A stretch of DNA of 43,576 nt from Desulfobacteria bacterium. GTDB taxonomy: Bacteria > Desulfobacterota > Desulfobacteria > Desulfobacterales > C00003060. Under the pieces are notes generated by a model that saw only the letters and a program-made list of their open reading frames with translations, did no database searches and was not told the DNA's origin. Within the stretch, counting starts at the first letter, position 1; the number at the start of each line of letters is the position of its first letter. Shown piece by piece: positions 11,266 through 40,588 of this stretch. The stretch covers positions 1-43,576 of the forward strand of contig JBFEUB010000003.1 in assembly GCA_041547605.1 (NCBI GenBank), read 5' to 3'. Position numbers and translations under genes: made by a program.

Positions 11266-11329
11266 TTGTGGTTGGGGTGTTGATTCTTGCGATTGAGGTT
11301 TTTTCCTGTCGAACTTTAGATGGGATTTG

Positions 11330-26697: not shown

Positions 26698-27393
26698 ATG
26701 CCAGATATCGAGGCTTCTGAAAGACATATCGAAGCCCTCACCCGAATCAGCAAGGCGATTACCTCAGAGCGTTACATAGAGGACGTTCTGCGACTTGTGG
26801 TTACGGTGACGGCTAAGACCATGCGTTCCAAGATTTGCTCTCTTTGGCTCTTGGATGAAAACGAAAATGCCTTACAGCTTCGGGCAACCCAGAGCATTAG
26901 CGAAGACTATCTGAAGGAACGGTCTCTGAAAATTGGGGAGGGCATTGCAGGGCAGGTGGCCCTGACCCAAGAGGCCAGGTCCGTGTTGAATGTTTTAGAT
27001 GAACCCGATTACAAGGAGAAGGAACTAGCCAGGAATGAGGGACTGGTTTCAATGCTGAGCGTTCCGATGGTGGTCAAAGACAGGGTCGTTGGCGTGATCA
27101 ACTGCTACACATCCGAACCTCATGAGTTTACAGAAACCGAGAAGAATGTGTTGACCACCGTGGCCAATGCAGCAGCCGTGGCCATTGAAAATACAGAGCT
27201 GATGGTAAAAACCAGAGTGATTCAAGAGGAGTTGGAGGCAAGAAAGCTTATCGAGAGGGCAAAAGATTTGTTGATGACGCGTCGGGGGTTGTCGGGGGCG
27301 GACGCATATCGGTGGATTCAACGACGAAGTATGGATGTGCGCAAGTCCATGAAGGAAATTTCAGAGGCAATAATATTGACCGACGATATGTAA
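26698..27393 (+). CDS. GAF-ANTAR RNA-binding antitermination regulator
   Basis: GAF (IGEGIAGQVA, SMLSVPM, VVGVINCY) plus ANTAR (LEARKLIERAKDLLM...AYRWIQRRSMD..KSMKEISEAII). Confidence 0.92.
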   Translation: MPDIEASERHIEALTRISKAITSERYIEDVLRLVVTVTAKTMRSKICSLWLLDENENALQLRATQSISEDYLKERSLKIGEGIAGQVALTQEARSVLNVLDEPDYKEKELARNEGLVSMLSVPMVVKDRVVGVINCYTSEPHEFTETEKNVLTTVANAAAVAIENTELMVKTRVIQEELEARKLIERAKDLLMTRRGLSGADAYRWIQRRSMDVRKSMKEISEAIILTDDM

Positions 27394-27444
27394 GCAACAC
27401 TTAAAATCTCGTGGGGTATCACAGGGCCCGAAGCACAAAAGCTG

Positions 27445-27473
27445 TTGACAGGTGTGAGCTTTATTAATAAAAT
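27445..27473 (+). promoter_or_regulatory. Sigma70 promoter for the glutamate-synthase-like/redox operon
   Basis: TTGACA (27445-27450), 17-nt spacer, TAAAAT (27468-27473). Confidence 0.8.
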
Positions 27474-27485
27474 ATGAGTGGTTTC

Positions 27486-27527
27486 AGGGTTACAATGGTG
27501 TGACTCTCAAACGACGACACTGAGGTC
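27486..27527 (+). promoter_or_regulatory. ANTAR-target RNA (dual hexaloop hairpins)
   Basis: P1 AGGGTTAC-AATGGT-GTGACTCT and P2 GAC-ACTGAG-GTC. Both loops are 6 nt with A1 and G4 and are closed by C-G. P2 overlaps the 5' arm of the terminator. Confidence 0.8.
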
Positions 27528-27561
27528 CAACTGACCCACATGGGTAGTTGGGCTTTTTTTT
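27525..27561 (+). terminator. Intrinsic leader terminator (attenuator)
   Basis: GTCCAACT(g)ACCC-acat-GGGTAGTTGGGC stem followed by T8, located between the promoter and ATG 27593. Confidence 0.85.
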
Positions 27562-27592
27562 GTCAAAAACAGGAATTAAGGAGGAATAGGCC

Positions 27593-29158
27593 ATGTCATT
27601 TAGTAAACCAAATCGCAGTGCAGCCACCTTAACGACTACTAGGGTAGCACCTGCGCCGATCTCCGGCATCTGTGTCACATGTTTGGATGGTTGTGAGGGG
27701 CCGTGTGAGATCGGGCGATCCGCCCTCAGGGGGAGAGAGGTCATCTATCCCATCCCATTTGGAAAGATTACAGCTGGCTCTGAAAAGGATTATCCTGTTG
27801 ACTTTTCCCATTTGAATATCCAGGGGACTGCCGTCGGGTCCGTGGGCGTTGAGGCCGATCCTGACAAAGCGACCTTTCCGGTTGTGGATACCACCACGGC
27901 ACTCGGTGCTGATGGAAGCATCAAACTTGATTTTCCGGTGTTCACGGGCGCCGTGGGATCAACCGACATTGCCCGGATCAACTGGACAGATGTGGCTGTC
28001 GGTGCTGCCATATCCGGGGTCATCGTAGTAGCCGGAGAAAATATCTGCGGCATGGACCCCCAGGCTGAGTTTAGTAATGGAAAAATTTTGCGGTCCCCCG
28101 AGATGGAGCGCAGGGTCCATGCGTTCAGGGAATGGTATAATGGCACGGGAGGGATCATCGTCCAGGCCAATGTTGAAGATACCAAGTTAGGCGTGCCGGA
28201 ATATGTGATTGAAAAGCTGGGCATAGAAATCTTTGAACTGAAGTGGGGACAGGGTGCAAAAGACATTGGAGGCGAGGTGAAGCTCCCGTCCATAGAGCGG
28301 GCCCTTCAGCTGAAGGAACGGGGCTACATTGTGCTTCCGGACCCTACCAATCCTGCTGCCCAGAAGGCTTTCAAGGCAGGGGGCATTACCGAGTTTGAGC
28401 GCCATTCCCGTCTCGGGATGGTTGATGAGGATGCCTTCCATAAGGAAGTGGAGCGCCTCCGCAGCGTTGGGGCAAAGTACGTTACTTTGAAGACCGGGGC
28501 ATATCGGCCTGCTGACCTGGCCCGCGCCATTAAGTATTCTTCTGATTCAAAGATTGATCTGTTGACCATAGATGGGGCTGGCGGAGGCACTGGGATGAGC
28601 CCCTGGCGGATGATGAACGAATGGGGCATTCCTACGGTGCAACTAGAGTCTCTGGCCTATCAGATGTGTGAGAAAATGAGGGCCAAAGGGGCCTATATTC
28701 CACCCATTGCCATTGCAGGGGGGCTCTCCCTGGAAGACCATATATTTAAGGCCATCGCGCTAGGCGCTCCTCACGTGAAAGCCATTTGTCTAGGAAGGGC
28801 CATGTTGACCGCCGCCATGGTGGGCAAGACCCATGGTAAATTGATGGCACAGAAGATGGAAGATGAAGGGGAAGACCCGAGCGATGGATACCTCAAGCTT
28901 TTTGCTGTGGCAGCCCAACTCAAAGAACGGTTCGGCGATGATTTTGCCAAGCTCCCGGCGGGAGCCATTGGTATGTATTCCTACATTGACAGACTGAAAC
29001 AAGGTTTGCAACAGCTCATGGCAGGAGCCCGAAAGTTTGCGCTTCAGTACATCGACCGTGATGACCTTGTTGCCCTTACCCGGGATGCAGCAGAGGTCTC
29101 TGGTATTGCCTACGTCATGGAGAGTGATGCTGAGGAGGTTGAAAAGATTTTGGGCTAG
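27593..29158 (+). CDS. Stand-alone FMN-binding glutamate synthase family protein (GltB FMN domain only)
   Basis: ELKWGQGAKDIGGE, VTLKTG, TIDGAGGGTGMSP, EWGIPT, IAGG, FKAIALGA. N-terminal CxxCxxxCxxxC. No Ntn amidotransferase or GXGXG domain. Confidence 0.85.
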   Translation: MSFSKPNRSAATLTTTRVAPAPISGICVTCLDGCEGPCEIGRSALRGREVIYPIPFGKITAGSEKDYPVDFSHLNIQGTAVGSVGVEADPDKATFPVVDTTTALGADGSIKLDFPVFTGAVGSTDIARINWTDVAVGAAISGVIVVAGENICGMDPQAEFSNGKILRSPEMERRVHAFREWYNGTGGIIVQANVEDTKLGVPEYVIEKLGIEIFELKWGQGAKDIGGEVKLPSIERALQLKERGYIVLPDPTNPAAQKAFKAGGITEFERHSRLGMVDEDAFHKEVERLRSVGAKYVTLKTGAYRPADLARAIKYSSDSKIDLLTIDGAGGGTGMSPWRMMNEWGIPTVQLESLAYQMCEKMRAKGAYIPPIAIAGGLSLEDHIFKAIALGAPHVKAICLGRAMLTAAMVGKTHGKLMAQKMEDEGEDPSDGYLKLFAVAAQLKERFGDDFAKLPAGAIGMYSYIDRLKQGLQQLMAGARKFALQYIDRDDLVALTRDAAEVSGIAYVMESDAEEVEKILG

Positions 29159-29249
29159 CGGGTTCTTGGCCAGTGTGGAGATTTGGAAGGTCCCAACCCA
29201 ATGAACGCTGCTCTCGAATGAACGCGATAAACCTAAGGAGGTAATAGTT

Positions 29250-29459
29250 ATGTTGAACATTATCTGTAAACACAACTGCAAGTCATGTTATGCTGAGCCT
29301 GTTTGCGCTGTGGATGCAATCATAGACCAGCAAGGTTCCATATATGTGGAGACCGAAAAATGTATTGGCTGCGGGTGTTGTCGCACGGCATGCGTGACCT
29401 TTGGGTATGATCAGGCTTTGAAAGACAAGACTGTAGAGTGGCTGAAGGGTGCTGCGTAG
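29250..29459 (+). CDS. Small 4Fe-4S ferredoxin-like protein
   Basis: SD AAGGAGGT. CKHNCKSC...CAVDAI and CIGCGCCRTAC motifs. Confidence 0.8.
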   Translation: MLNIICKHNCKSCYAEPVCAVDAIIDQQGSIYVETEKCIGCGCCRTACVTFGYDQALKDKTVEWLKGAA

Positions 29460-29467
29460 TATCTGAC

Positions 29468-29561
29468 TGGATTAATGGAGTGTTGGCGTGGTAGGCTTTA
29501 AGAACTACATGAATCATGCTGTCACTTTATGGATGCAATACTCTAGTGCTCCATCACTCCA
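29468..29561. repeat. Inverted octamer tandem-repeat array (TGGAGTNN / NNNACTCC type)
   Basis: tggattaa-tggagtgt-tggcgtgg ... aatactct-agtgctcc-atcactcc. Confidence 0.6.
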
Positions 29562-29649
29562 TCTGCGCAGTATAGGCAAGGTGGCAACAAGAAGCATCAT
29601 TTCAATTTGTTGTATAGTGTCCTAACCCTGAACGTCTTGGGGTTTTCTT

Positions 29650-31464
29650 ATGTACGGATATACCGGTCGTTGCCTTCGGGTCAACCTGTCCGATGAGAAG
29701 CACTCGGTTGAAGTAATTTCACCCGAGTTGCTGACCCGATTTGTAGGCGGACGGGGTCTTGGGGTCAAGATGTACTCAGATGAGGTCGGCCCTAAAACGG
29801 ACCCCTTGGGGCCAGAGAACAAATTGGTTTTTGTCTCGGGTCCCCTTGTCGGCACGGGTGCCGTCACTGGGGCCTCTTGCAATGTGATCACAAAGAGCGC
29901 CCTGTCCGGAACCATTGGTTGTGCAAAGATGCGGGGGCACTTTGGGGCAGAACTGAAGTTCGCCGGATTCGACATGATCATCGTTGAAGGGAGGGCGGCA
30001 TCACCGGTCGTCCTGTCTATCCTGGACGATAAGGTGAGTATCCAGCCGGGGCTTCAATATTGGGGCCGCACTACGTCAGAATCAGAGGAAATCTTTAAGA
30101 AAAATCTCACCGACGATTGGGCGGCCCGGGAGACATACCTGGTCTCTATCGGCCCAGCAGGCGAGAAATTAGTCCCTTTGGCGAACATCATTAATGACGG
30201 ATTCTTATCCGTTGGGGGTGCGGGCATTGGCGCTGTCATGGGATCCAAGAATCTCAAGGCCATCGCCGTCAGGGGGAGCCGTTCGTTGTCAGTTGCAGAC
30301 AGCGATCGGTTTGTACGGGTCGTTACGAACCTGATCAATAAATTGAACAGCGCCCCACTCACTTCTCATTCCATGTCCGCGTGGGGATCCGCCTTTTTTG
30401 TGGATCTCTGTTATCAGAAGGGGATACTGCCTCAGAAGAATTTTCTGGGTGCCCCTTTTACGGAATTAAGAGAAATTGGGACCGAGGCCCTGTCGAATGC
30501 CTTTGCTTTTAGGAGCAGCGGGTGTTTTGCTTGCCCTATTGCCTGTCTCAAGAAGACGGATGTGAATAATCCCCTCTTTAAAGGCAGGGGCATGGCGCCA
30601 ACTTACTGGGCTATTGGCGCTCTTGGGCTTAACTGTGGGATTAAAGACCTGAGCATCATTGGTATGGCGAATATTATCTGCGCCGAGATGGGACTCGATC
30701 CAATTGCCGCGGCTGGCACCGTGGCTACGGGTATGGAGTTGATGGAAAAGGGGATCGCTTCCCAGGACAACTTAAAGCTTGCACTGCGGTTTGGGCAGGG
30801 AGAGGACCTTCTTCAGGCCCTGACGCTCATGGCCACAAAAAAAGGTTACGCCGAGAGAATTGGAAAAGGGGCGCGGGCCTTGGCCGAGGAATACGGTCAA
30901 CCCGAGTGTTTTATGGGCGTTAAGGGGATGCCTATGGCTCCCTTTGATCCGAGAGCTATTCAGGGCATGGGTTTGCATTTTGCTACCTGTAATTACGGGC
31001 CCCATCATCTGTACGCCTACACCTTCATCGAAGAGGTGTTGAATGTCCACGAGGAACTGGATCCCTGGAGCACCGAGGGCAAACCTGAACTGGTTAAGCG
31101 ATACCAGGATATGGCGGCGATCATGGATTCGCTGGGGCTTTGCAACTGGCCGCTGCTGGGGCTCAAGTTCAATAATCTCGTTCCCATGATCAATAGTGGT
31201 CTGGGCACTGACCACCGTGCAGATGATCTCTTGGGGATCGGAGAACGAATCTGGAACCAGGAAAGACTGTTTAACATGGGAGCCGGATTTCACAATTCGC
31301 ACGACACATTGCCCAACAGATTTTTCAAAGAACCGATTTCAGATGGGCCGGCTCAGGGGCAGATTAGCAAGGTGGACGAGATGCTTCCCAAGTACTATGA
31401 GATTCGAGGCTGGAGCGAGAAAGGTGCGCCCAAGGCCGACAGATTGGAGGCCTTGGAGCTGTGA
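29650..31464 (+). CDS. Aldehyde:ferredoxin oxidoreductase (AOR)-family protein with degenerate tungstopterin/catalytic motifs
   Basis: End-to-end AOR architecture (GGRGLG, GAELKFAG, SIGPAGE, GAVMGSKNLKA, CFACPIAC, DPR, DSLGLC, ERLFN, YYEIRGW). Several cofactor residues are substituted. Confidence 0.9.
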   Translation: MYGYTGRCLRVNLSDEKHSVEVISPELLTRFVGGRGLGVKMYSDEVGPKTDPLGPENKLVFVSGPLVGTGAVTGASCNVITKSALSGTIGCAKMRGHFGAELKFAGFDMIIVEGRAASPVVLSILDDKVSIQPGLQYWGRTTSESEEIFKKNLTDDWAARETYLVSIGPAGEKLVPLANIINDGFLSVGGAGIGAVMGSKNLKAIAVRGSRSLSVADSDRFVRVVTNLINKLNSAPLTSHSMSAWGSAFFVDLCYQKGILPQKNFLGAPFTELREIGTEALSNAFAFRSSGCFACPIACLKKTDVNNPLFKGRGMAPTYWAIGALGLNCGIKDLSIIGMANIICAEMGLDPIAAAGTVATGMELMEKGIASQDNLKLALRFGQGEDLLQALTLMATKKGYAERIGKGARALAEEYGQPECFMGVKGMPMAPFDPRAIQGMGLHFATCNYGPHHLYAYTFIEEVLNVHEELDPWSTEGKPELVKRYQDMAAIMDSLGLCNWPLLGLKFNNLVPMINSGLGTDHRADDLLGIGERIWNQERLFNMGAGFHNSHDTLPNRFFKEPISDGPAQGQISKVDEMLPKYYEIRGWSEKGAPKADRLEALEL

Positions 31465-31476
31465 TCTTTAAGAAGG

Positions 31477-31540
31477 GGTTGAGTGGTTAAGTCGTTTTCA
31501 GCCCAACCACTTAACTAGTCGACTAATCAACTAATCGACT
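31477..31540. repeat. Inverted octamer tandem-repeat array (GGTTGAGT / ACTYAACY type)
   Basis: ggttgagt-ggttaagt ... gcccaacc-acttaact-agtcgact-aatcaact-aatcgact. Confidence 0.65.
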
Positions 31541-31561
31541 TCGAAACTGCGAGAGAGGCAT

Positions 31562-31936
31562 ATGCCGAAAATAGTAATTGATCACAACAAATGCACCGGC
31601 TGTAGGCATTGTGAGGTCGCTTGTTCTCTGAATCATGTAACGGGTATTGCCAATCCTCGAAGAGCCCGAATCAGGGTTTTTCGGGAGGGGAACACCTTCT
31701 TTCCCGTGATTGCCGGTCCCTTTGTGGACGCGGCTTGCACATCGAAGCTTACCATAAAGGCGGGTGATCAGACATACGATATGTGTGTGCTCTGCCGGGC
31801 TACGTGCCCACAGAAATCCTTTTTTTTAGAGGCTGAGACCGGCTTTCCCCTTAAGTGCGATTTCTGCGGTATTCCCCCTAACCCTTCCTGCGTTCGCTGG
31901 TGCAATTCCGGAGCCCTGGAGTTGGTGGAGGATTAG
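31562..31936 (+). CDS. BamC-like 3x[4Fe-4S] electron-transfer subunit
   Basis: KCTGCRHCEVACS..NPRRARIRV..PVIAG..C..YDMCVLCRATCP..F.E.ETGFPLKCDFC..PSCVRWC. The pattern matches the remembered BamC sequence but lacks its C-terminal tail. Confidence 0.75.
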   Translation: MPKIVIDHNKCTGCRHCEVACSLNHVTGIANPRRARIRVFREGNTFFPVIAGPFVDAACTSKLTIKAGDQTYDMCVLCRATCPQKSFFLEAETGFPLKCDFCGIPPNPSCVRWCNSGALELVED

Positions 31937-31938
31937 CT

Positions 31939-32005
31939 ATTTGGAAATTGGAAAATTTGGGAATTAGTCCCTCAATCCCTCAATTCCATAATCCCTCAAT
32001 TCTCA
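31939..32005. repeat. Inverted octamer tandem-repeat array (ATTKGGRA / AATCCCTC type)
   Basis: atttggaa-attggaaa-atttggga ... agtccctc-aatccctc-aattccat-aatccctc-aattctca. Confidence 0.65.
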
Positions 32006-32009
32006 TGAT

Positions 32010-35000
32010 ATGAAGCATAACAAGGATAGTCACAACATCATCGGTGCCCTCATGGTATTAGGCGGTGGCATTGCCGGCATCCAGGCGTCTATGGATCTGG
32101 CTGATGCTGGTTTCCGAGTGTATTTGGTCGAGGCATCTGCGGCCATAGGTGGCGTGATGGCAGCTCTCGACAAGACCTTTCCTACCAATGACTGTTCGAT
32201 CTGAATCTTAGCCCCCAGACTCGTTGAGTCTGCCAGGCATCCCAACATCGAAATTCTAACCAATGCGACTTTGAGGGAAGTTTCGGGGTCTGCCGGAAAC
32301 TTTAAGGTGACAGTGCTGAAACAACCCCGCTACGTGGATGAAACAAAATGCACGGCCTGCGGGATTTGCGCCACCTATTGCCCCGTTCTGGTTCCTGATC
32401 CCTATGACGAAAACATGGCTCATCGCAGAGCGATCTACATCCCTTACACACAGGCGGCTCCATCGGCCTATGTGGTCGACCCATACCATTGCCTTTTTCT
32501 GAATAGGCAAGAATGCAAGCAGTGTACCCGAACTTGTGAGGCCAAAGCCATCAATCTTGACCAGAAGCCCGAGATAATAACCTATGAAGTGGGGGGGCTG
32601 ATCCTGGCTCCCGGCTTCTCAAGGTTTGATCCTGGGCGGTTGCCTGCCTATGGGTATGCGGATTGTCTCAATGTAGTTACTGGTTTAGAGTTTGAGCGGA
32701 TCTGCTGTGCGTCTGGGCCGTCCATGGGAAAGATCCAGAGGCCCTCGGACCGAAATAAACCCGAGAAGATAGCGATTGTCTTATGTGTAGGCAGCCGGGA
32801 CAAGGCTTGCGGCAATCCTTACTGTTCCTCGGTTTGTTGTAAGTATGCGATCAAGGATGCAATCGTGGCGTTAGAACATGAGCCTGATTTAGACATCACG
32901 ATATTTTTCATGGACATTCGCACGTACGGCAAGGATTTTGAGAAGTTTTATCAGCGTGCGAAAGCAGCGGGTGTGAAGTTTGTGCGTAGCAGGGTCTCTG
33001 AGATTAGAGAGGACCCCCGAACCAATGATCTCACCTTAAAGTACGTGACAGAAGATGGGGGCCTGAGGAAAGACACCTTTAACTTGGTGGTGCTGGCCCA
33101 CGGGCTTGAGGCTCCTGCGGGCAGCAGTAACCTCGCCTTGGCAGCAGAGATCGGACTGAACCAGTACAATTTTTGCGAGACGGGCCTGTTTCGACCACTT
33201 GATAGCACCAGAGAAGGCATCTTTGTCGCCGGTGCGTTTCAAGGACCCAAATCGATTCCCGACAGCGTGATCCAGGCTGGTGGTGCTGCCGCCTCGGCAG
33301 CCGAGCTGTTGGCTGCGGTCCGTGGAACGCTGGTCAGAGAGAAGACGTACCCTGAGGAGCGCACAGACGCTGACGCACCATCGAAAATTGGGGTGTTTGT
33401 ATGCCACTGCGGCAAGAATATTGCCGGGGTGGTGGATGTAGAAGCAGTGATCAAATACGCAGAGAGCTTGCCTGATGTGGCGATGGTGGAACGTAACCTC
33501 TACTCTTGTTCTTCGGATACCCAGGCTTTGATTGCAAAAACCATAGCTGAGAAGGGTTTGAATCGTGTGGTGGTGGCCGCCTGCACGCCCAGAACGCATG
33601 AGGTGCTTTTTCAAGACACCCTGAGAGAAGCGGGCCTCAACAAATGTCTTGTTGAGATGGTTAATATTCGGGATCAATGCTCATGGGTGCATATGCATGA
33701 GCGGGAGGCAGCCACGGAAAAGGCCAAGGAACTTGTCCGGATGGCTGTTGCCAAGGCGAGACAGATTCAGCCGCTTCCAGAGACAACTATTGAGGTCATT
33801 CCGAAGTGTCTTGTCATCGGTGGCGGACTCTCGGGTATGACCGCGGCCCTCAGCTTAGCCCGGCAGGGCTTTGAATGTTACTTGGTGGAACGTAGCAGTG
33901 ATCTTGGAGGCAATCTCCGGCACACCTATTTTACGTTGGAGGGGCCGGATCCCCAAGAACACCTTAAGCGACTTATTGAGCAAGTGGAATCAAACGATAA
34001 GATTCATCTCTTCACGAAGACCGCCATTCAAGAGGTTGCAGGCTTTGTTGGCAACTTCAAGACCGTCCTGTCTTTCGGGAGCGGAACAGGAGTAAAGACA
34101 GAAGAAATCGAACACGGAGCCATCATTGTGGCCACAGGGGCCACGGCCTATGAACCCGACGCGTATCTGTATGGCCGGCATAAAAACGTGGTGCTTCAGC
34201 AAGTATTGGAAGAAGGGCTAGCCCTTGGGAAGGTCGATCCGAAAGACCTTAAACAGGTCGTCATGATCCAGTGTGTGAGCTCAAGGGACGAGACCCATAC
34301 CTATTGCAGTGCGATTTGTTGCAACCAGGCGATCAAGAATGCCTTGAAGATTAAAGAACTTAACCCTGAAGCCAATGTAAGCATCTTGTATCGCGATGTG
34401 ATGAGTTACGGCTTTAGTGAGGATTACTACAGTCTTGCCAGGGATCAAGGCATTGTTTTTATCCGCTACAGCCCGGATAAAAAGCCCAAGGCAGAGAATG
34501 TTGAGGGCAAGGTGCGCGTGACAGTTAAGGACCCGATAGTGAAGCAGAATGTGATCATTCATGCTGATCTCTTGGCTTTAAGCACGGCCATGGTTCCATA
34601 TGACAACAGGGACTTCGTTGAAAAGCTGAAGGTACCGCTATCCTCCGATCAGTTTTTCTTAGAATCTCATGCACAATTGAAACCCGTGGATTCTTATGTG
34701 GATGGTATCTATCTTTGCGGCAAAGCGCAGTTTCCCAAGCCCATCAATGAGTGCATCGCCCAGGCCAAGGCTGCTGCAGCCAAAGCTGCCATTTTGTTGG
34801 CCAAGGGCTATGTGATGGCAGAACCGATCATTGCCTCGTGCGACATGGACACCTGCATGGGATGCGGTATCTGTGCCTATTTGTGTCCATATAGTGCCAT
34901 CCAAATGACGAAGGTGGGCAAGCTGAAAAAAGCCGCAATTGTTGCAGCAGCCTGCAAGGGATGCGGTGTGTGTGCCTCTTATTGTCCAACCAGGTCCATT

Positions 35001-35066
35001 GCCATGGGCCGCTTCACGGATGAGCAGATTGAGGAGCAGATTAGGGCTTTTGGGGAAGGAAGTTAG
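32010..35066 (+). CDS. hdrA: Selenocysteine-containing tandem HdrA-like (BamE-like) flavo-iron-sulfur protein, about 1018 aa
   Basis: ORFs 32010-32204 and 32271-35066 are in one frame joined by TGA 32202 in [12 protein letters not shown][U]ILAP. Two GGGxxG FAD domains, YCS.VCC motifs, VFVCHCG, ferredoxin domains. Confidence 0.9.
32216..32232 (+). promoter_or_regulatory. Putative bacterial SECIS hairpin (hdrA)
   Basis: CAGACTC-GTT-GAGTCTG, 11 nt after the UGA; the apical loop starts with G. Confidence 0.7.
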
Positions 35067-35067
35067 G

Positions 35068-35179
35068 CATTGAGGAGGAAATTTTTTTCATAAGCCGTGA
35101 TAATATTCAAAAAGCTTGATTGAAGGACCTTGCCAAGTTTACGGTATCACGGCTTGTTCGAAAAACCCCCTCCTCAATG
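35068..35179. repeat. 112-nt intergenic inverted repeat
   Basis: Perfect 11-bp outer arms CATTGAGGAGG/CCTCCTCAATG and perfect 11-bp inner arms AAGCCGTGATA/TATCACGGCTT. Confidence 0.75.
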
Positions 35180-35211
35180 AAGGGAAGATTACGAGTAGAA
35201 GGAAAGGGATC

Positions 35212-35961
35212 GTGCCAAAATCATTTGAGCCCCGAATTCTCGGTTTCTTATGCCACTGGTGCTGCTATGCGGCAGCTGATGCAGCCGGGGTGTCGCGTTT
35301 TCAGTATCCGCCCCATGTCCGTGTCATCCGGGTGATGTGCACGGGAAGGATAGACGCTGTGTTTCTAGTGGATGGGTTTGTCAACGGGGCTGACGGCGTC
35401 TTTGTTGGTGGCTGACACCTGGGCGAGTGTCATTACCGGGACGGTAATTACGAAGCCATCAACAAGTTCCATCTGGTCAGGCGTATCCTTGATGATCTTA
35501 AGGTCAATCCGGATAGATTATCCCTGGAGTGGGTTTCTGCAGCCGAGGCGCCACGTTTTGTCAACGTCATCACAGAATTTACCGGGCGTATCAGAGATCT
35601 TGGCTCGCTCGGAACGAGTGAAGGGCTGGACGCGCATCATCTCAGGATTAAGTTAAAGGCCGCCAAGATGGCTCTTGAGGGTAAGCGGCTGCGAATGGTC
35701 TTTGCAAGGCAGGCCAAGTACAGGAAGCATGAGGGGGCCTACCGTGAAATTCCGTCTGATCATAAGCTGCATGCAGAAATGGATAGGGCCCTTTCAGATG
35801 AGCTGGCTACCAACGGATTGCTTCTCTATTTGCAGGACAGTCCCCGCAGGGTGGATGAATTGGCAGGGCTTTTGGAGGTCTCTCCGGACGATGTGGTCGC
35901 CTGCTTTAAGAAGCTTGAAAAGAAGGGGCTCGTGGAGTCGAACAGGCTTGTTGGTTATTAG
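35212..35961 (+). CDS. Selenocysteine-containing MvhD/FlpD-like (BamF-like) 2Fe-2S protein with C-terminal extension, 249 aa
   Basis: GTG start. FLCHWCCYAAAD.AG, IRVMCTGR, GADGVFVGG[U]HLGECHY, with TGA 35413 at the conserved Cys. The frame stays open to 35961. Confidence 0.88.
35432..35448 (+). promoter_or_regulatory. Putative bacterial SECIS hairpin (mvhD-like)
   Basis: ATTACCG-GGA-CGGTAAT, 16 nt after the UGA; G-rich apical loop. Confidence 0.7.
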
Positions 35962-35966
35962 CAATT

Positions 35967-36061
35967 GGTTGAGTGGTTGAGTACGAATGGTTAAGTGGTT
36001 GAGTCGTTGAGCGGTCGAACACAATGGAAGCATTTATTTACTCAACCATTCAATTAATGAC
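35967..36061. repeat. Inverted octamer tandem-repeat array (GGTTGAGT type, second copy)
   Basis: ggttgagt x2, ggttaagt, ggttgagt, cgttgagc, ggtcgaac ... actcaacc-attcaatt. Confidence 0.7.
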
Positions 36062-36094
36062 GCATGACAAAGGACAGGAAGCGGAGTAAGCAGA

Positions 36095-36577
36095 ATGACA
36101 AGTGACAAAGCAGAAGATATCATTTTTGACCAATTAGACCAGCACTTCAGGGATGAAGTTGCTGAGAAGATCGGTTTGGAAGAGATCAAGCCATGCTATA
36201 CCTGCGGGTCTTGTACGGCGGTGTGTCCTGTACATGAGGTGATTGAAGACTTTGATCCCAGACGCATGATTCACATGATTTTGCTGGGCATGCGTAGAGA
36301 GGTGCTCTCCTCTGATCTGATCTGGTTCTGTTGTTTGTGTAACGCATGCTTTTTTGTATGTCCCCAAAAGATAAGGTTTAGCCGGGTAGCTACTGAGCTG
36401 AGAGACCTGGCTTTAGAGGAAGGCCATGTGGACGAAGATTTTTTGAACAGACTGGAGGCATTGCATCCCTACTTGCAGGATTTGTGTCGCCGGACCCTGT
36501 TCGGAAAAGTAAAAGAAGGATTCTGTGGATCTCATACGATGCCGTGTTGGAGGAAACACACCAAGACGACTCCGTAA
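36095..36577 (+). CDS. HdrC-like 2x[4Fe-4S] protein
   Basis: CYTCGSCTAVCP, FDPRRMI..ILLG, IWFCCLCNACFFVCP. Confidence 0.85.
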   Translation: MTSDKAEDIIFDQLDQHFRDEVAEKIGLEEIKPCYTCGSCTAVCPVHEVIEDFDPRRMIHMILLGMRREVLSSDLIWFCCLCNACFFVCPQKIRFSRVATELRDLALEEGHVDEDFLNRLEALHPYLQDLCRRTLFGKVKEGFCGSHTMPCWRKHTKTTP

Positions 36578-36689
36578 AAAGTCCATCTACGGCGTTGTGC
36601 TTCATCTTTCGTCATTGCGACGTACTTATTAGTACGCCTCACTCCTCAAGGGTCGCACGCCTTGTATATGAACTTTTTACGAAGCCGTC
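36565..36689. repeat. REP-like 125-nt palindromic element overlapping the hdrC-like stop codon
   Basis: GACGACTCCGTAAAAAGTCCATCTAC matches the reverse complement of the right arm, GACGGCTTCGTAAAAAGTTCATATAC, at 22/26. Inner hairpin CGTAC..GTACG. Confidence 0.75.
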
Positions 36690-36771
36690 TGTCTATTGAG
36701 TTATTGAAAGACCATATAACCTGATCCTTGGACATTCGGGTCTAAATTTCAATCATTCGGAGATAACAGGA

Positions 36772-37257
36772 ATGGGTTTTGAACGGGTTGATGAGATATT
36801 AGACAGATATGGACACAGGCATGAAGCCCTGATAAGCATGTTGCAGGATGTCCAGCGTTTGGAGAATTACCTGCCCCAGGAGACGCTTCAATATATTGGC
36901 AAGAGGTTAGAGGTCCCACTTTCAAGGATTTATTACATCACTACCTTTTATAAGTCCTTTAGCTTGGAGCCTAGAGGTAAACACATTGTGAAGGTCTGTC
37001 TTGGAACAGCCTGCCATCTCAATGGTGCGTTGCAGAATCTGGAACAGATTCGACGGGCCCTTGATATTCGTGAGGGGGAGACAACTGGAGACAAAATGTT
37101 TTCGTTGGAAACCGTCAACTGTGTGGGTACCTGTGCCTTGGCTCCGGTCACTGTCGTGGGTGACAAGTATTACGATGCGGTGACACCAGCAAAGGTTGAA
37201 AAAATCATATCGAATTATTCGGGAAAAGCAGAGGATGCCGCGGGTGAAGAAGATTAA
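36772..37257 (+). CDS. NuoE/HydC-like 2Fe-2S subunit (BamG-like)
   Basis: LQDVQ..YLP, TFYKSFSLEPRGKH, VCLGTACH, TVNCVGTCALAP. Confidence 0.92.
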   Translation: MGFERVDEILDRYGHRHEALISMLQDVQRLENYLPQETLQYIGKRLEVPLSRIYYITTFYKSFSLEPRGKHIVKVCLGTACHLNGALQNLEQIRRALDIREGETTGDKMFSLETVNCVGTCALAPVTVVGDKYYDAVTPAKVEKIISNYSGKAEDAAGEED

Positions 37258-39097
37258 GACACCTTCAGACTTGGAGACCCATCGTCAAGCCCTCGTCAAT
37301 GAGCGGGATCCCAACAAGCGGGTTGTTCGGATTTGCTGCACCACAGGATGTCGCGCTGGTGGCGCTCTCAACATCGTTGAAGACGTTAAGAGCGAGCTTG
37401 CCAAGCAAGGCTTGGAAAACAAAATTGAGGTTAAGAAAACGGGCTGCCGAGGATTCTGTGAAAATGGTCCGGTCATGGCTATCGAACCGGAGGACATTTT
37501 TTATAACAAAGTGAAGCCTAAGAACGTACCAGAAATTATTTCTGAAACTCTCGTGCACGGAAAACCCTTAAAGCGTCTCCTATATACCGATCCTGAAACG
37601 AAGAAAAAGATCCAGAAGGAAAAAGAAATCCCCTTTTTCGGAAAACAGGTTCGACATGTGTTTTCCCATCTTGGCACAATTGATCCCACTCAGATTGACG
37701 ACTACATTGCAGAGGGCGGCTATGGGGCCTTAACCAAGGTACTGACTACTATGAAGCCAATGGACGTTATTGAAGCTATAGAGGCATCTGGGTTGCGTGG
37801 CCGCGGGGGTGGCGGTTTTCCTGCTGGTAGAAAATGGAGATCTTGCCGGGAGGCGCCGGGAATCATCAAGTATGTGATTGCCAATGGTGATGAAGGAGAC
37901 CCGGGGGCTTTTATGGACCGCAGCCTCATGGAGGGTGACCCTCACAGCATTCTTGAGGGGATGATCATCGGGGCCTATGCCATTGGTGCGCATGAGGGCT
38001 TTATTTATGTCCGGGATGAGTATCCCATCGCAGTGGAGCATTTAGGGATAGCTATTGAGCAGGCGGATTCGTATGGTCTGTTGGGCGAAAACATTTTGGG
38101 CACGGGTTTTAACTTTAGAATTCAGATCGTCAGAGGGGCCGGGGCGTTTGTGTGTGGGGAATCAACAGCCCTGATGAACTCCCTGGAAGGCAGAGTGGGG
38201 GAGCCCAGAGCCAAGTATGTGCATACTGTGGAAAGCGGCTTGTGGGACAGGCCGAGCACGTTGAATAATGTGGAGACTTGGGCCAACGTGCCTTTAATCA
38301 TTAACCGGGGTGCTGCATGGTATGCTGAAACGGGGACTGCTAATAGCACGGGAACCAAGATATTCTCCGTTGTGGGCAAGGTGAGAAATACAGGCCTGGT
38401 AGAAGTCCCCATGGGCATTACCCTTCGGGAGATCATCTTTGATATTGGCGGCGGGATTAGAAAGAATAAGTCTTTCAAGGCAGTTCAGACCGGTGGCCCA
38501 TCGGGCGGCTGCATACCTGCCAGTAGGATAGATATGCCGGTGGACTTCGACAGCCTTAAGAAAGTGGGAGCGATGATGGGATCCGGCGGCATGATTGTGA
38601 TGGACGAGAATACATGCATGGTGGATGTGGCCAAGTATTTCATACACTTCTTAATGTATGAATCATGCGGGAAGTGCGTCCCCTGCCGGGAGGGGCTGAA
38701 GCAGATGCACGAGATCCTGTCAAATATCTGTGAAGGTGACGGAGAAAAAGAAGACCTCGCGTTGCTGGAAAGCCTCTCTGCTTTTATGATCGATGCTTCG
38801 TTGTGCGCATTGGGCGGTACCGCACCTAACCCAGTGCTCAGCACGATTCGGTATTTTCGGAATGAATACGAGGCTCACATAGTTGACAAAAAATGCCGGG
38901 CTGGCGTGTGTCGCAATCTATTTGAATACTTCATTGACGAAGACCTGTGTAATGGTTGCACCTTATGCCGCATCAAGTGCCCCGAAGAGGCAGTCTTAGG
39001 GGAAAAGAAGAAGCCCCATACCATTGATGTGGATAAGTGCATCCGGTGCGGCATATGTTACACATTGTGCAAAAAGGAGGCCGTGGTCGTCATGTAG
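37235..39097 (+). CDS. NuoF/HydB-like NAD(H)/FMN-binding subunit (BamH-like)
   Basis: N-terminal thioredoxin-like 2Fe-2S (CxxxxC..TGCRGFCENGP), GLRGRGGGGFP, NGDEGDPGAFMDR, GAGAFVCGE, ESCGKCVPCREG, C-terminal 2x[4Fe-4S]. Confidence 0.93.
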   Translation: MPRVKKIKTPSDLETHRQALVNERDPNKRVVRICCTTGCRAGGALNIVEDVKSELAKQGLENKIEVKKTGCRGFCENGPVMAIEPEDIFYNKVKPKNVPEIISETLVHGKPLKRLLYTDPETKKKIQKEKEIPFFGKQVRHVFSHLGTIDPTQIDDYIAEGGYGALTKVLTTMKPMDVIEAIEASGLRGRGGGGFPAGRKWRSCREAPGIIKYVIANGDEGDPGAFMDRSLMEGDPHSILEGMIIGAYAIGAHEGFIYVRDEYPIAVEHLGIAIEQADSYGLLGENILGTGFNFRIQIVRGAGAFVCGESTALMNSLEGRVGEPRAKYVHTVESGLWDRPSTLNNVETWANVPLIINRGAAWYAETGTANSTGTKIFSVVGKVRNTGLVEVPMGITLREIIFDIGGGIRKNKSFKAVQTGGPSGGCIPASRIDMPVDFDSLKKVGAMMGSGGMIVMDENTCMVDVAKYFIHFLMYESCGKCVPCREGLKQMHEILSNICEGDGEKEDLALLESLSAFMIDASLCALGGTAPNPVLSTIRYFRNEYEAHIVDKKCRAGVCRNLFEYFIDEDLCNGCTLCRIKCPEEAVLGEKKKPHTIDVDKCIRCGICYTLCKKEAVVVM

Positions 39098-39228
39098 TTT
39101 CCATTCCGAAATTTCGCATGTTCGAATTGGAAAGTCGACTAACCGATATCCCTTGACCGGCATGCTCCCCGCAAGGCCCGTCCGGAAGGGTGGGGAGGCT
39201 TCAGTGTTGAGGGCTTGTTGAGATATAA

Positions 39229-39936
39229 ATGATGGTGACACTCACGATTGATGGACAGATTGTCCACGTACAGCGTCATACGCCGATACTTGATATAGCC
39301 AAAGAGTTGGGGATTCATATTCCAACGCTGTGTTATCATGAGGCCATCAGGGCCTACGGGTCGTGTCGTCTTTGCGTGGTTGAGTTATGCAGCAACGGTC
39401 GTTCCAAGCTAGTCACTTCATGTAACTACCCTGCAGAGGGGGGGCTGGTGGTCTTTACCGCTAGTGAGAGAGTCAAGAATACCCGCAAGATGGTTATGGA
39501 ACTCCTTCTATCGAGGTGTCCTGATGTGCCGGAGATTCAACAACTGGCTGAAAAGGTAGGGATCAAGACATCTCGACTGAGCAAAAGGGGAGATCAGCGT
39601 TGCATCCTGTGTGGGCTTTGTGTGCGGGCCTGTGAGGAGATAGTCGGGGTAAACGCCATTAGCTTTGCCAGCCGCGGTATCGACCGAGAGGTGGACACAC
39701 CCTTTGGCGCCGATTCAGATGTCTGTATCGGGTGCGGCTCATGCACCTACCTCTGTCCGACGGGGTGTATTGAGATGGTGGGCGACCCGGGGTCTCCTGG
39801 CATTCGAACCATGAATATGGGAAATCTCCAGCTAGAACCTTGTTTCAACAACTACCAGTGCGATAATTGCGAGATAGACCACGAGTTTGTTGATGAGATG
39901 AAGCGGGTGATGGAACAAGTGCGGTCTCAAACGTAG
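39229..39936 (+). CDS. NuoG/HydA N-terminal-like Fe-S subunit without catalytic domain (BamI-like)
   Basis: IPTLCYH..YGSCRLCVVE..TSC, CILCGLCVRAC, CIGCGSCTYLCP. Ends at 235 aa. Confidence 0.88.
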   Translation: MMVTLTIDGQIVHVQRHTPILDIAKELGIHIPTLCYHEAIRAYGSCRLCVVELCSNGRSKLVTSCNYPAEGGLVVFTASERVKNTRKMVMELLLSRCPDVPEIQQLAEKVGIKTSRLSKRGDQRCILCGLCVRACEEIVGVNAISFASRGIDREVDTPFGADSDVCIGCGSCTYLCPTGCIEMVGDPGSPGIRTMNMGNLQLEPCFNNYQCDNCEIDHEFVDEMKRVMEQVRSQT

Positions 39937-40027: not shown

Positions 40028-40447
40028 TCAGGGCACGGACACTTTTTGGGAGGGCCTTGGCACTCTCCTGGCCACTTTGTGCAGTCGCCGCACCCGAGGA
40101 AGCTCAGTGGCCTCCTTGTGGGAATAATCCAGAGTCTTCTTGCCATTCAATAAGGCCAGCAAGAGTCCTTCTTCCCGGCAGCGGCCAGCATGGCCGCATT
40201 TCTTGCGGCTGCGTTCAAAGTAGTATAACGGGGCCAGACAGTTGAAGGCGCTGACAGGAATGGTGTCTTTACCCCGTTGATATCTATATTCGATCCTCTT
40301 TCTACCAGATAGAACTTCTTTACCCAGTGTCAGATCTGGACAATCGTCTCCGAACCGTGGGCATCGGGCACAATGCTCGAAAAATCTAAGGGGAGCCTGA
40401 CATACAAACTCCAAGACGCTGATATCTTTTGGAATTTTTCTAGCCAT
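40028..40447 (-). CDS. Hypothetical Cys-rich protein with two internal repeats (139 aa)
   Basis: SD GGAGGT before ATG 40447. Repeated F.C.APL..FE..C..C..L.G.K..Y unit. Confidence 0.75.
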   Translation of the reverse strand: MARKIPKDISVLEFVCQAPLRFFEHCARCPRFGDDCPDLTLGKEVLSGRKRIEYRYQRGKDTIPVSAFNCLAPLYYFERSRKKCGHAGRCREEGLLLALLNGKKTLDYSHKEATELPRVRRLHKVARRVPRPSQKVSVP

Positions 40448-40588
40448 ACCGTCCACCTCCCGCAAAAGCGTTGGCAAAAACCTATAACGTTTACAGTGAC
40501 TAATACTAATATCATGGCGACGAAGTTTAGTCAAACTAAATATATCACACACAAAAAAACCGCGCATACCCGGCACGGTCTATTCATC

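Follow-up and report, generated by a model that had tools for sequence, protein, structure and literature searches.

What is accomplished by an operon in which a gene of the glutamate synthase (GltS) family heads the parts of a benzoyl-CoA reductase-like electron-bifurcating machine? The question is raised by contig C3 of a Desulfobacteria bacterium, which was analysed in its entirety (43,576 nt, hereafter the window) and belongs to a genome of 3.46 Mb in 315 contigs that is 95% complete. Ten co-oriented genes lie on the forward strand of the window at 27593-39936, directly after a GAF-ANTAR regulator gene, just where a preliminary description made from the DNA letters had placed them. They encode, in order, an FMN protein of the GltS family, a ferredoxin, a protein of the aldehyde:ferredoxin oxidoreductase (AOR) family, a BamC-like subunit, a fused double HdrA, an MvhD/BamF-type adaptor, an HdrC-like protein and three subunits resembling NuoE, NuoF and NuoG. 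We tentatively propose, with a confidence a little short of even, that the operon encodes an ANTAR-gated supercomplex of Bam architecture whose electrons go, under nitrogen control, to an enzyme that reductively aminates 2-oxoglutarate with ammonia. The supports for this proposal are the Bam-like architecture, the linkage of the genes in other genomes, the nitrogen context, the conservation of the AOR-like protein and the GltS motifs kept in the FMN protein. What is directly observed is the gene content, the cofactor motifs, selenocysteine, the attenuator, the recurring synteny and the residues whose replacement is fixed in the AOR-like protein; these observations are set out before the proposal is weighed.

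The AOR-like protein was compared with solved structures. It aligns end to end with PfAOR (1aor, 3.9e-149) and matches 9mqx_D, the WorL subunit of a bifurcating tungsten enzyme, at 2.5e-143, whereas the match to BamB (4z3w_A) reaches only 4.8e-40 over residues 2-417; the gene thus follows classical AOR and not BamB, as had been supposed. It has both the AFOR_N and the AFOR_C domain, and its four [4Fe-4S] cysteines (C292, C295, C299 and C498) are kept, as are D493 and H453. The residues shared by PfAOR and 9mqx_D, namely R76, N93, R182, R186, E311 and E313, are instead S, K, L, G, T and W in the operon protein, and D338 of PfAOR is A. The term "degenerate" given to this AOR earlier is therefore apt in that cofactor and active-site residues are replaced while the cluster cysteines are kept. 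Two AOR paralogues of the same genome keep the arginines and glutamates common to PfAOR and 9mqx_D, so that PfAOR and the paralogues together show R76, N/Y93, R182, R186, E311, E313 and D/N338 at the replaced positions. Written against the PfAOR alignment with the variation among relatives, the replacements are R76S, N93K, R182L, R186G, E311T, E313W/L and D338A/G; in the numbering of the AOR-like protein itself the residues are S76, K93, R95, H97, L186, G190, T318, W/L320 and A/G345. Syntenic relatives show the same pattern in 16 of 16 cases. The four cysteines and the replacements also recur in 120/120 of the best database clusters (at least 73% identity), in which K93, R95 and H97 are invariant, and because all of these clusters keep both, the protein is altered and conserved rather than decaying. 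Where named, the 119 other best-matching clusters with the replacements are called aldehyde:ferredoxin oxidoreductase or hypothetical protein, and the former name is probably wrong. We take the replaced residues to be those that in PfAOR hold the pterin phosphates and act in catalysis, and on that ground we infer that the pterin cofactor has been lost. In two relatives the gene is interrupted: the frame of L014 (2739-4553) ends after 198 codons, and the gene at G253:C102:5509-7314 has one internal TGA. Each case reflects damage to the gene or a mistake in the assembly.

The FMN protein was assigned to the GltS family by a Pfam match that spans only profile positions 186-309 of 369. Its N-terminal CX2CX3CX3C motif (C27, C30, C34 and C38) is invariant, and so are the motifs WGQGAK...GGE and DGAGGGTGMSPW, which align with EIKYGQGAKPGDGG and DGEDGGTGA of an archaeal-type GltB encoded in this genome. 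QGAK and DGxxGGTG, both GltS motifs, are retained. A profile alignment of the two proteins by hhalign gave 28% identity over 254 columns (E 8e-4). The FMN protein is highly conserved, with 56-93% identity across phyla. At least 7999 database proteins match it at E <= 1e-10, all of them generically named, and the Atlas clusters of a stored homologue likewise carry only the generic name "FMN-binding glutamate synthase family". Neither the protein nor a 30-sequence profile matched any solved GltS structure at E <= 1, the only matches being designed TIM barrels, and by these comparisons it is only a remote GltS relative. In the AlphaFold2 model (mean pLDDT 72, pTM 0.79) residues 1-100 are of low confidence, and residues 100-420 form an alternating strand-helix core mostly with pLDDT > 80. 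No glutamine amidotransferase domain or subunit was found in the operon, and PF00310 had no match anywhere in the 95% complete genome. A GXGXG domain or subunit was also not found in the operon; the sole match of the genome lies in the archaeal-type set on contig C124. Given that neither a glutaminase nor a GXGXG partner accompanies it, the FMN protein is taken as a GltS-family reductase, and its predicted activity, most likely and with moderate confidence, is the reduction of 2-oxoglutarate with free ammonia.

The other products resemble, for the most part, those of a Bam-type machine. Subunit by subunit, the Bam likeness proposed beforehand could be followed for C, E, F, G, H and I and not for BamB and BamD; the Bam sequences compared were the solved B and C chains, and E to I were likened by domain type and description, not by trees. 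The best of 8 solved matches to the BamC-like protein is BamC itself (4z3w_E, 1.5e-28), the next type being WorS-type (8c0z_C, 1.7e-10), and its 12 cysteines are invariant in a 14-sequence alignment. The double HdrA matches methanogen HdrA (5odc_A) at 2.7e-192 in three stretches and has two dinucleotide (FAD)-binding sites, at residues 14-54 and 599-640. The MvhD-like protein matches FlpD at 2.5e-51 on residues 41-163 of 281 and continues for about 115 aa beyond this domain at its C-terminus. The in-frame TGA keeps its position in every motif-matched relative of both genes, any residue being allowed there (12/12 for HdrA and 8/8 for MvhD), and a tRNA-Sec gene is present on contig C36. A hairpin with a z of -3.1 lies 9-37 nt after the HdrA codon; after the MvhD codon no hairpin better than shuffles was found. 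Both TGA codons are taken to be selenocysteine codons, as the preliminary description had it. The ferredoxin resembles the fused Fer4 domain of the archaeal-type GltB at E 0.002, a generic likeness of cluster motifs.

The HdrC-like protein has no CCG/HdrB part. In profile searches none of the ten operon products contained a CCG/HdrD-like domain, an H-cluster or a Mo-pterin domain, and the absence of an HdrD-like BamD and of a hydrogenase or formate dehydrogenase catalytic subunit was thereby borne out. The NuoF-like subunit begins with a [2Fe-2S] domain and ends with a 2x[4Fe-4S] domain, the order of the Bfu type, and its best solved matches are 9mqx_B (2.9e-241) and HydB (8a6t_B, 1.9e-231). 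The NuoG-like subunit has [2Fe-2S] and [4Fe-4S] clusters and no catalytic domain. The set has the features of Bfu (HydABC-type) modules, namely a BfuB with FMN and both cluster domains, a BfuC and a short BfuA, as the family is defined in the accessible part of PMC9304861.

Table 1. Features of the operon, its head and the convergent regulator gene (positions of the window)
Feature	Position	Strand	Remarks
GAF-ANTAR regulator gene, 243 aa	26662-27393	+	Pfam GAF_2 3e-21, ANTAR 2.7e-17; directly upstream of leader
Sigma-70-like promoter, TTGACA-17-TAAAAT	27445-27473	+	11/12 consensus matches; consensus match alone
ANTAR-type leader	27486-27561	+	P1 loop AAUGGU; P2 GAC-ACUGAG-GUC; terminator hairpin and U8
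GltS-family FMN protein, 521 aa	27593-29158	+	PF01645 52.5 bits (cut-off 20.4)
Ferredoxin, 69 aa	29250-29459	+	8 invariant Cys, 2x[4Fe-4S] pattern
AOR-family protein, 604 aa	29650-31464	+	PF02730 1.8e-65, PF01314 9e-107
BamC-type subunit, 124 aa	31562-31936	+	12 invariant Cys (3x[4Fe-4S])
Fused double HdrA, 1018 aa	32010-35066	+	in-frame TGA 32202-32204; Sec65 in C62-x-x-U65
MvhD/BamF-type adaptor, 281 aa	35116-35961	+	TGA 35413-35415 (Sec); start codon uncertain
HdrC-like di-cluster protein, 160 aa	36095-36577	+	TIGR03290 3.8e-18, qmoC 7.7e-14, Fer4_8, Fer4_17
NuoE/HydC/BamG-like [2Fe-2S] subunit	36772-37257	+	PF01257 1.5e-49; HoxE, NuoE models
NuoF/HydB/BamH-like subunit	37235-39097	+	ATG 37235 is the likely start
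Short NuoG/HydA N-terminal/BamI-like subunit, 235 aa	39229-39936	+	Fer2_4, Fer4_7; HoxU, group A6 hydrogenase N-terminus
Convergent regulator: KaiC-like N-terminus, XRE helix-turn-helix, cupin	40589-41890	-	Pfam HTH_3, Cupin_2; PuuR-like 9.1e-16

The recurrence of this gene set was assessed by scanning one genome per species with the FMN protein, which gave at least 572 relatives. The best 80 loci were kept for neighbourhood counts, their neighbour families being assigned by clustering; many of the contigs end early, several of them inside the gene set. An AOR-like gene lies downstream of the FMN gene in 19 of the 80 loci, and 18 of these 19 also carry a BamC-like gene, the contig of the remaining one ending first. 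HdrA is next in 14 loci, NuoE is reached in 9, NuoF in 7 and all ten genes in 6, and a ferredoxin homologue follows the FMN gene in 34 (tblastn, E <= 1e-8). As labelled, the carriers are Thermodesulfobacteriota (many labelled Deltaproteobacteria), three Nitrospirota and one "Deferribacteres", which amounts to two or three phyla. The linkage of FMN, AOR-like and BamC-like genes, for which a synteny search had been suggested, is hence present in other genomes and phyla, and the refutation framed beforehand, which required it to be missing there, does not hold. In the reverse direction, the AOR-like protein was searched against 400 further genomes sampled from the phylum; 8 of them have a relative at 54-74% identity, below which the best match is 46%, and the FMN gene adjoins the AOR-like gene in all 5 that were checked of those 8. 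No relative was found in the genomes sampled from the order to which the window belongs, which makes the distribution patchy. Gaps in other loci are tighter than in the window: in 6 of 8 measured loci the projected gap from the AOR-like to the BamC-like gene is <=2 nt, and HdrA lies 0-26 nt behind the BamC-like gene in 6 of 8. A tree of 79 FMN proteins requires 4 changes of the label "AOR-like downstream", compared with 17.3 in shuffles, and the window falls in a well-supported clade of 20 rows, 15 of which carry the label. Because kin share labels, this result shows clustering and not co-evolution.

The partners of the FMN gene vary outside that arrangement. Three loci (L035, L036 and L060) have only a four-gene core of FMN, ferredoxin, AOR-like and BamC-like genes, with opposite-strand genes on both sides. 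In 8 loci the FMN gene, in some with a ferredoxin gene, is followed by NuoE, NuoF and an 880-aa form of NuoG with a molybdopterin domain. NuoF of the two loci checked among these 8 (L045 and L049) has no C-terminal ferredoxin domain, and their module is therefore not of the bifurcating type. In one Dethiobacter locus two copies of the FMN gene flank a Bfu-type set, and in the remaining loci the FMN gene stands alone or with a ferredoxin gene. L020 (15554-18109) continues after HdrA with genes for a 560-aa NarI-like/4Fe-4S protein and a CCG-domain protein, a Qmo/DsrMK-like arrangement which suggests that the system also exists in a quinone-linked membrane form.

The head of the operon was examined for regulatory signals. 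The leader has two hexaloop hairpins with A at position 1 and G at position 4, the 3' side of P2 is shared with a strong terminator hairpin ending in U8, and an ANTAR protein is encoded in the genome, features that correspond to the definition of ANTAR targets in the accessible part of Ramesh et al. (PMC3369931); these authors had themselves predicted ANTAR targets upstream of glutamate synthase genes in Desulfotomaculum reducens. The leader folds with -41.3 kcal/mol (z -3.81), and none of 200 shuffles was as good. In an alignment of 10 leaders, compensatory changes occur at 7 of 15 predicted pairs, the first stem being among the places that show them, and the three P2 pairs are invariant in 10/10. 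Collectively, the fold, the covariation and the neighbouring GAF-ANTAR gene identify the attenuator noted earlier as a genuine ANTAR-type target. A crude ANTAR-leader scan of the whole genome gave 53 loose matches, of which by eye only the window's own is convincing, and the window has no Rfam match at gathering scores. The GAF part of the regulator resembles, by profile match, the N-terminal GAF domains of NifA and PtsP. An ANTAR gene adjoins the FMN gene in 9 of the 80 loci, and leaders of ANTAR build precede the homologous FMN gene in 22 related loci, some of them in tandem. Tandem pairs of attenuators stand ahead of the FMN gene in L041, L044, L046, L069 and L079. A conserved leader of another, non-ANTAR kind lies 170 nt upstream of the FMN gene in the Desulfomonile-type loci L024, L026-L030 and L032, with the order TTGACA, then a GCTAATATT-like element, then a common CCAATTAGTG...GCTAAC stretch.

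The statement that no obvious U-tract terminator separates the genes stood in part: the promoter-attenuator lies at the head, and there is one weak terminator-like site at 29624-29644, ahead of the AOR-like gene. Across the whole region the numbers of promoter-like sites (12) and terminator-like sites (13) do not exceed those in shuffles (13.9 for each). With respect to RNA, contigs of at least 99% identity from three metatranscriptome runs of one study are scattered over all operon parts at a depth of 2-6, and one of them, at 27390-27990, covers the leader with its terminator and reaches the FMN gene. Such contigs demonstrate that the sequence is present in RNA libraries, with DNA carry-over possible, and cannot demonstrate a single transcript; stretches without contigs carry no meaning.

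The surroundings point to ammonia, glutamine and glutamate metabolism. Among the neighbours of the FMN gene in the 80 loci are NifA/NtrC-type activators (13), NrpR (12), glnA (10) and glutamate dehydrogenase (GDH; 5), and further nadE, carB and purF. The homologues of NrpR, an archaeal nitrogen repressor, occur in L008, L016, L035, L036, L043, L045 and others, all but one bacterial as labelled. The family of the convergent KaiC-like/helix-turn-helix/cupin regulator adjoins the FMN gene in 17 of the 80 loci, whatever the redox partners; in the window, a 182-aa open reading frame (ORF) on the reverse strand (40028-40576), lacking a Pfam match, lies between this regulator and the operon. Upstream of the operon in the window are hisH, hisF, carA, guaA, carB, purF, kdsB, a GlmS-like gene and pyrG, and also a sigma-54 activator gene passing the NCBI NifA cut-off, glnA, nadE, a second carB and a PurF-like gene. 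The stretch 1005-26457 is a supercluster of amidotransferase genes, nearly all of which use glutamine or ammonia and some of which are duplicated. The second carB has no carA, and the PurF-like gene is under the NCBI cut-off (316 vs 350 bits). The GlmS-like protein, of 1252 aa (11327-15085), matches the GlmS model on residues 302-917 and has a family-less extension of about 300 aa at each end.

Contig C124 overlaps the first gene of the window and carries a second glnA and a split archaeal-type glutamate synthase, the set (L085, 2-4465) running into 3-848 of the window. It consists of a 376-aa family-less protein with a faint likeness to the GlmS glutaminase (E 0.021), the archaeal-type GltB with Fer4 and PF01645 (197 bits), and a GXGXG/Fer4_20/Pyr_redox_2 (GltD-like) fusion whose terminal ferredoxin domain lies inside the window. 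By its gene content, the organism has a separate, more ordinary glutamate synthase. This set rules out the candidate role of the FMN enzyme as the organism's only glutamate synthase. A role in making reduced ferredoxin for nitrogenase is ruled out here as well, there being no PF00148 match in the 95% complete genome. Each of five other carriers checked has 2-3 further, stronger PF01645 genes, and GDH was found in one of these five.

Considering the Bam likeness, the known complex serves as the guide to a mechanism. As described in the accessible part of a preprint on the cryo-EM structure of class II benzoyl-CoA reductase (BCRII) from Geobacter (10.64898/2026.04.10.717634), NADH and reduced ferredoxin are confurcated by BamGH, a unit of HydBC type; BamI and the long Sec-containing MvhD-type BamF are relays; and in BamE, a fused HdrA dimer, bifurcation takes place at the N-terminal flavin, next to a Cys59-Cys62 pair. 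From there a low-potential branch runs through the inserted ferredoxin domain of BamE and BamC to the AOR-family BamB, and a high-potential branch through the HdrBC-like BamD to ETF; two bifurcation modules in one complex were, according to the preprint, previously unreported.

By homology with BCRII and from the gene order, the following path is proposed for the operon. Assembly of the products into a single complex, bifurcation by them, the sequence of carriers, the direction in which electrons move, the substrate and the signal sensed by the regulator are all inferred, and the steps are worded accordingly. On a signal of nitrogen status, the adjacent GAF-ANTAR protein would permit read-through of the leader terminator. 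NADH, probably with reduced ferredoxin, would enter at the HydBC/Bfu-type NuoE/NuoF pair, and the NuoG-like subunit and then the Sec-containing MvhD/BamF-like adaptor would carry electrons to the N-terminal flavin of the double HdrA, beside its C-x-x-Sec motif, where electron pairs would be split. One branch would lead through the three clusters of the BamC-like subunit to the AOR-like subunit, retained as a one-cluster scaffold or wire with its usual pterin site gone, and from there through the two clusters of the ferredoxin to the four-cysteine site and FMN of the GltS-family enzyme, which would reduce the imine of 2-oxoglutarate and ammonia to glutamate. The other branch would pass via the HdrC-like protein to an acceptor encoded elsewhere than in the operon. 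The four-gene core operons speak for placing the FMN enzyme on the AOR-like/BamC-like arm.

Several observations weigh against this mechanism. The genes of the operon are separated in the window by gaps of 49-194 nt, which together with the weak terminator-like site leave room for separate transcripts, and RNA contigs of low depth from one study cannot prove co-transcription. The loci with a non-Bfu NuoE/F/G set indicate that NADH alone may suffice for the reaction of the FMN enzyme. The other GltS-family genes in this genome and in the carriers make the FMN enzyme an extra and not the house glutamate synthase. Its substrate is uncertain, given that both the protein and its profile miss solved GltS and that one third of the Pfam model is matched. 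Pterin loss is argued from the roles of the replaced residues in PfAOR, and the invariant K93, R95 and H97 may bind phosphates in another way. Finally, there is an energetic difficulty. The standard potential of 2-oxoglutarate reductive amination lies well above that of NADH, and the BamC branch is by homology with BCRII the low-potential one, so that at ordinary ammonium the pairing looks wasteful. The potentials of NAD, ferredoxin and heterodisulfide used in these considerations were taken from the accessible part of PMC9304861.

One way out of the difficulty would be to reverse the wiring of the same complex. The FMN enzyme would then be the high-potential acceptor that replaces BamD/HdrB, and the operon would encode an energy-conserving, ferredoxin-producing glutamate synthase; exergonic formation of glutamate from NADH would drive the reduction of ferredoxin docking at the AOR-like/BamC-like arm. 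We consider both this arrangement and this energy coupling unlikely, although a number of points speak for them. Ferredoxin is the partner of classical AOR, the HdrC-like protein lacks the acceptor-binding CCG part and so needs a partner, and the plain NADH-module loci suggest that NADH drives the FMN enzyme unaided. The heterodisulfide of HdrB has a midpoint potential of about -140 mV, as given in the accessible part of PMC9304861, close to the standard potential that we assume for 2-oxoglutarate and NH4+/glutamate. The order of the genes, in contrast, groups the FMN, ferredoxin, AOR-like and BamC-like genes, the minimal operons that have neither HdrA nor HdrC-like genes tie the FMN enzyme to the AOR-like/BamC-like arm rather than to HdrC, and in BCRII the low-potential branch is the one that contains BamC, according to the accessible part of 10.64898/2026.04.10.717634. 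The other way out keeps the proposed wiring and assumes scarce ammonium. By our calculation from the Nernst equation and the standard value, the potential of 2-oxoglutarate and NH4+/glutamate falls by about 30 mV per tenfold drop in ammonium, and NADH therefore cannot drive a GDH-type reaction at micromolar ammonium. Cells at such concentrations normally pay ATP via glutamine synthetase. There is some small chance that the operon instead serves ATP-free, high-affinity ammonia assimilation, in which Bam-type double bifurcation would feed electrons far below NADH to the GltS-type enzyme; ammonium would be pulled in with redox energy, and the AOR look-alike would be a wire or a ligand-binding gate at K93/R95/H97. 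Between the two ways out we are undecided: the plain NADH-module loci favour reversed wiring, whereas the core operons and the Bam homology favour the low-potential arm.

A somewhat smaller probability still is assigned to the idea that two enzymes are merely co-located and co-regulated, a four-subunit ferredoxin-dependent enzyme of GltS type and a separate NADH-ferredoxin module of HdrA, MvhD, HdrC-like protein and NuoEFG. It would account for the four-gene core standing alone in three loci, for the gaps of up to 194 nt in the window and for two further sets in this genome that have no FMN or AOR-like genes. One of these, on contig C57, comprises a paralogous HdrA (54%), MvhD (50%) and HdrC-like gene (44%) with a GltD-like gene; the other, on contig C53, is a second NuoE/F/G set (46-57% for NuoE/F and 32% for NuoG). 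In L018 and L020, moreover, HdrA is followed by other partners, including the NarI-like/Fer4 protein and the CCG protein. Nevertheless, the junction of the BamC-like gene and HdrA is kept in 14 of the 18 loci with a BamC-like gene, the other four including the three minimal operons, and it is as tight as described above in most measured loci. It is also not evident what an HdrA/Bfu module would catalyse if it lacked a third substrate, and BamC contacts BamE in the part of the BCRII structure report (10.64898/2026.04.10.717634) that could be consulted. It is equally doubtful that the AOR-like protein is a working pterin enzyme with a rebuilt pocket, a WOR/BCR-type reductase of a nitrogen-related substrate, and that the FMN protein does not act on 2-oxoglutarate. 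The newly fixed basic residues K93, R95 and H97 in the cofactor loop of AOR would suit such an enzyme, as would the kept H453 and D493, the strong constraint on the AOR-like clade and the remoteness of the FMN protein from solved GltS; a Bam-type machine also supplies electrons of very low potential, according to the accessible part of 10.64898/2026.04.10.717634. This is opposed by the replacement, by S, L, T and L/W, of arginines and glutamates that are common to PfAOR, 9mqx_D and the two paralogues, by the QGAK and DGxxGGTG motifs kept in the FMN protein and by a context that is wholly one of ammonia, glutamine and glutamate metabolism.

If the proposed ANTAR-gated supercomplex is true, it would be a second, independent use of the tandem-bifurcation design, with another output enzyme and in another part of metabolism, and a case of a tungsten-enzyme subunit retained as an iron-sulfur scaffold after loss of its cofactor site. 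For sulfate reducers and Nitrospirota that are short of energy, it points to an alternative in nitrogen assimilation that is driven by redox reactions, and the operon suggests an undescribed way in which energy-poor anaerobes pay for nitrogen assimilation.

How does the operon compare with known systems? Full-text literature searches, supplements not covered, found no link of a GltS-family gene with AOR-like and HdrA/Bfu genes. The main text of the Bfu family paper (PMC9304861), in the part available, does not mention glutamate synthase, and the accessible part of a 2026 WOR classification (PMC13328260) has no such class. A figure legend in the D. autotrophicum genome paper, of which part was available, shows an hdrA locus with ferredoxin, an Fe/S protein and "Aor5" that may be a relative. 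The attenuator shares with the EutV/NasR/AmiR ANTAR regulons the dual A1/G4 hexaloop hairpins overlapping a terminator and differs from them in that the sensor is a GAF domain of the NifA/PtsP kind.

The closest complex is class II benzoyl-CoA reductase of Geobacter metallireducens, Bam[(BC)2DEFGHI]2. Both have a BamC-type three-cluster subunit beside an AOR-family subunit, a fused double HdrA (BamE) with a redox pair near residue 60 (here C62-x-x-U65), a long Sec-containing MvhD-type adaptor (BamF), a HydCBA/Bfu-type BamGHI set and two bifurcation modules in series, and the gene order is nearly the same. The operon differs in that its AOR-family subunit belongs to the classical AOR clade and is without the usual pterin and active-site residues, in that a 160-aa HdrC-like protein stands in place of the HdrBC-like BamD, and in the extra GltS-family FMN and ferredoxin genes at its head; all genes around it, in the window as well as in related loci, belong to nitrogen assimilation or regulation, with no benzoyl-CoA pathway. 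WorLSABC (Wor-Bfu, class IV WOR, 9mqx) resembles the operon by a WorL/WorS pair joined to BfuABC, as the AOR-like and NuoF matches to its chains reflect, and its WorSL units act as cluster wires according to the accessible part of PMC13328260. It lacks counterparts of HdrA, MvhD, HdrC and the FMN enzyme, tungsten catalysis is retained in its WorL, and the small subunit of the operon, with three clusters, is nearer to BamC than to WorS. With HdrABC-MvhAGD of methanogens the operon has in common the flavin and cluster domains of HdrA, the MvhD adaptor and an HdrC-type di-cluster protein; it has no HdrB and no hydrogenase, its HdrA is duplicated and fused, and the input is an NADH module.

The glutamate synthases, whether dependent on ferredoxin, NAD(P)H/GltD or F420 or of the split archaeal form, share with the FMN protein the PF01645 barrel, the QGAK and GGTG motifs, an iron-sulfur entry to FMN, donors varying by lineage and nitrogen regulation; F420-dependent forms are mentioned in the available parts of PMC9012536/10.1101/2021.09.25.461819 and PMC3087415. 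The operon differs from them in having no glutaminase and no GXGXG partner, in an FMN protein too remote for a profile match to solved GltS, which bears an N-terminal CX2CX3CX3C and no fused ferredoxin domain, and in an HdrA/Bfu machine as electron input, not found described in the literature searched. The gene set is a new variation both on the Bam/Bfu/HdrA complexes and on glutamate synthases with exchangeable donors.

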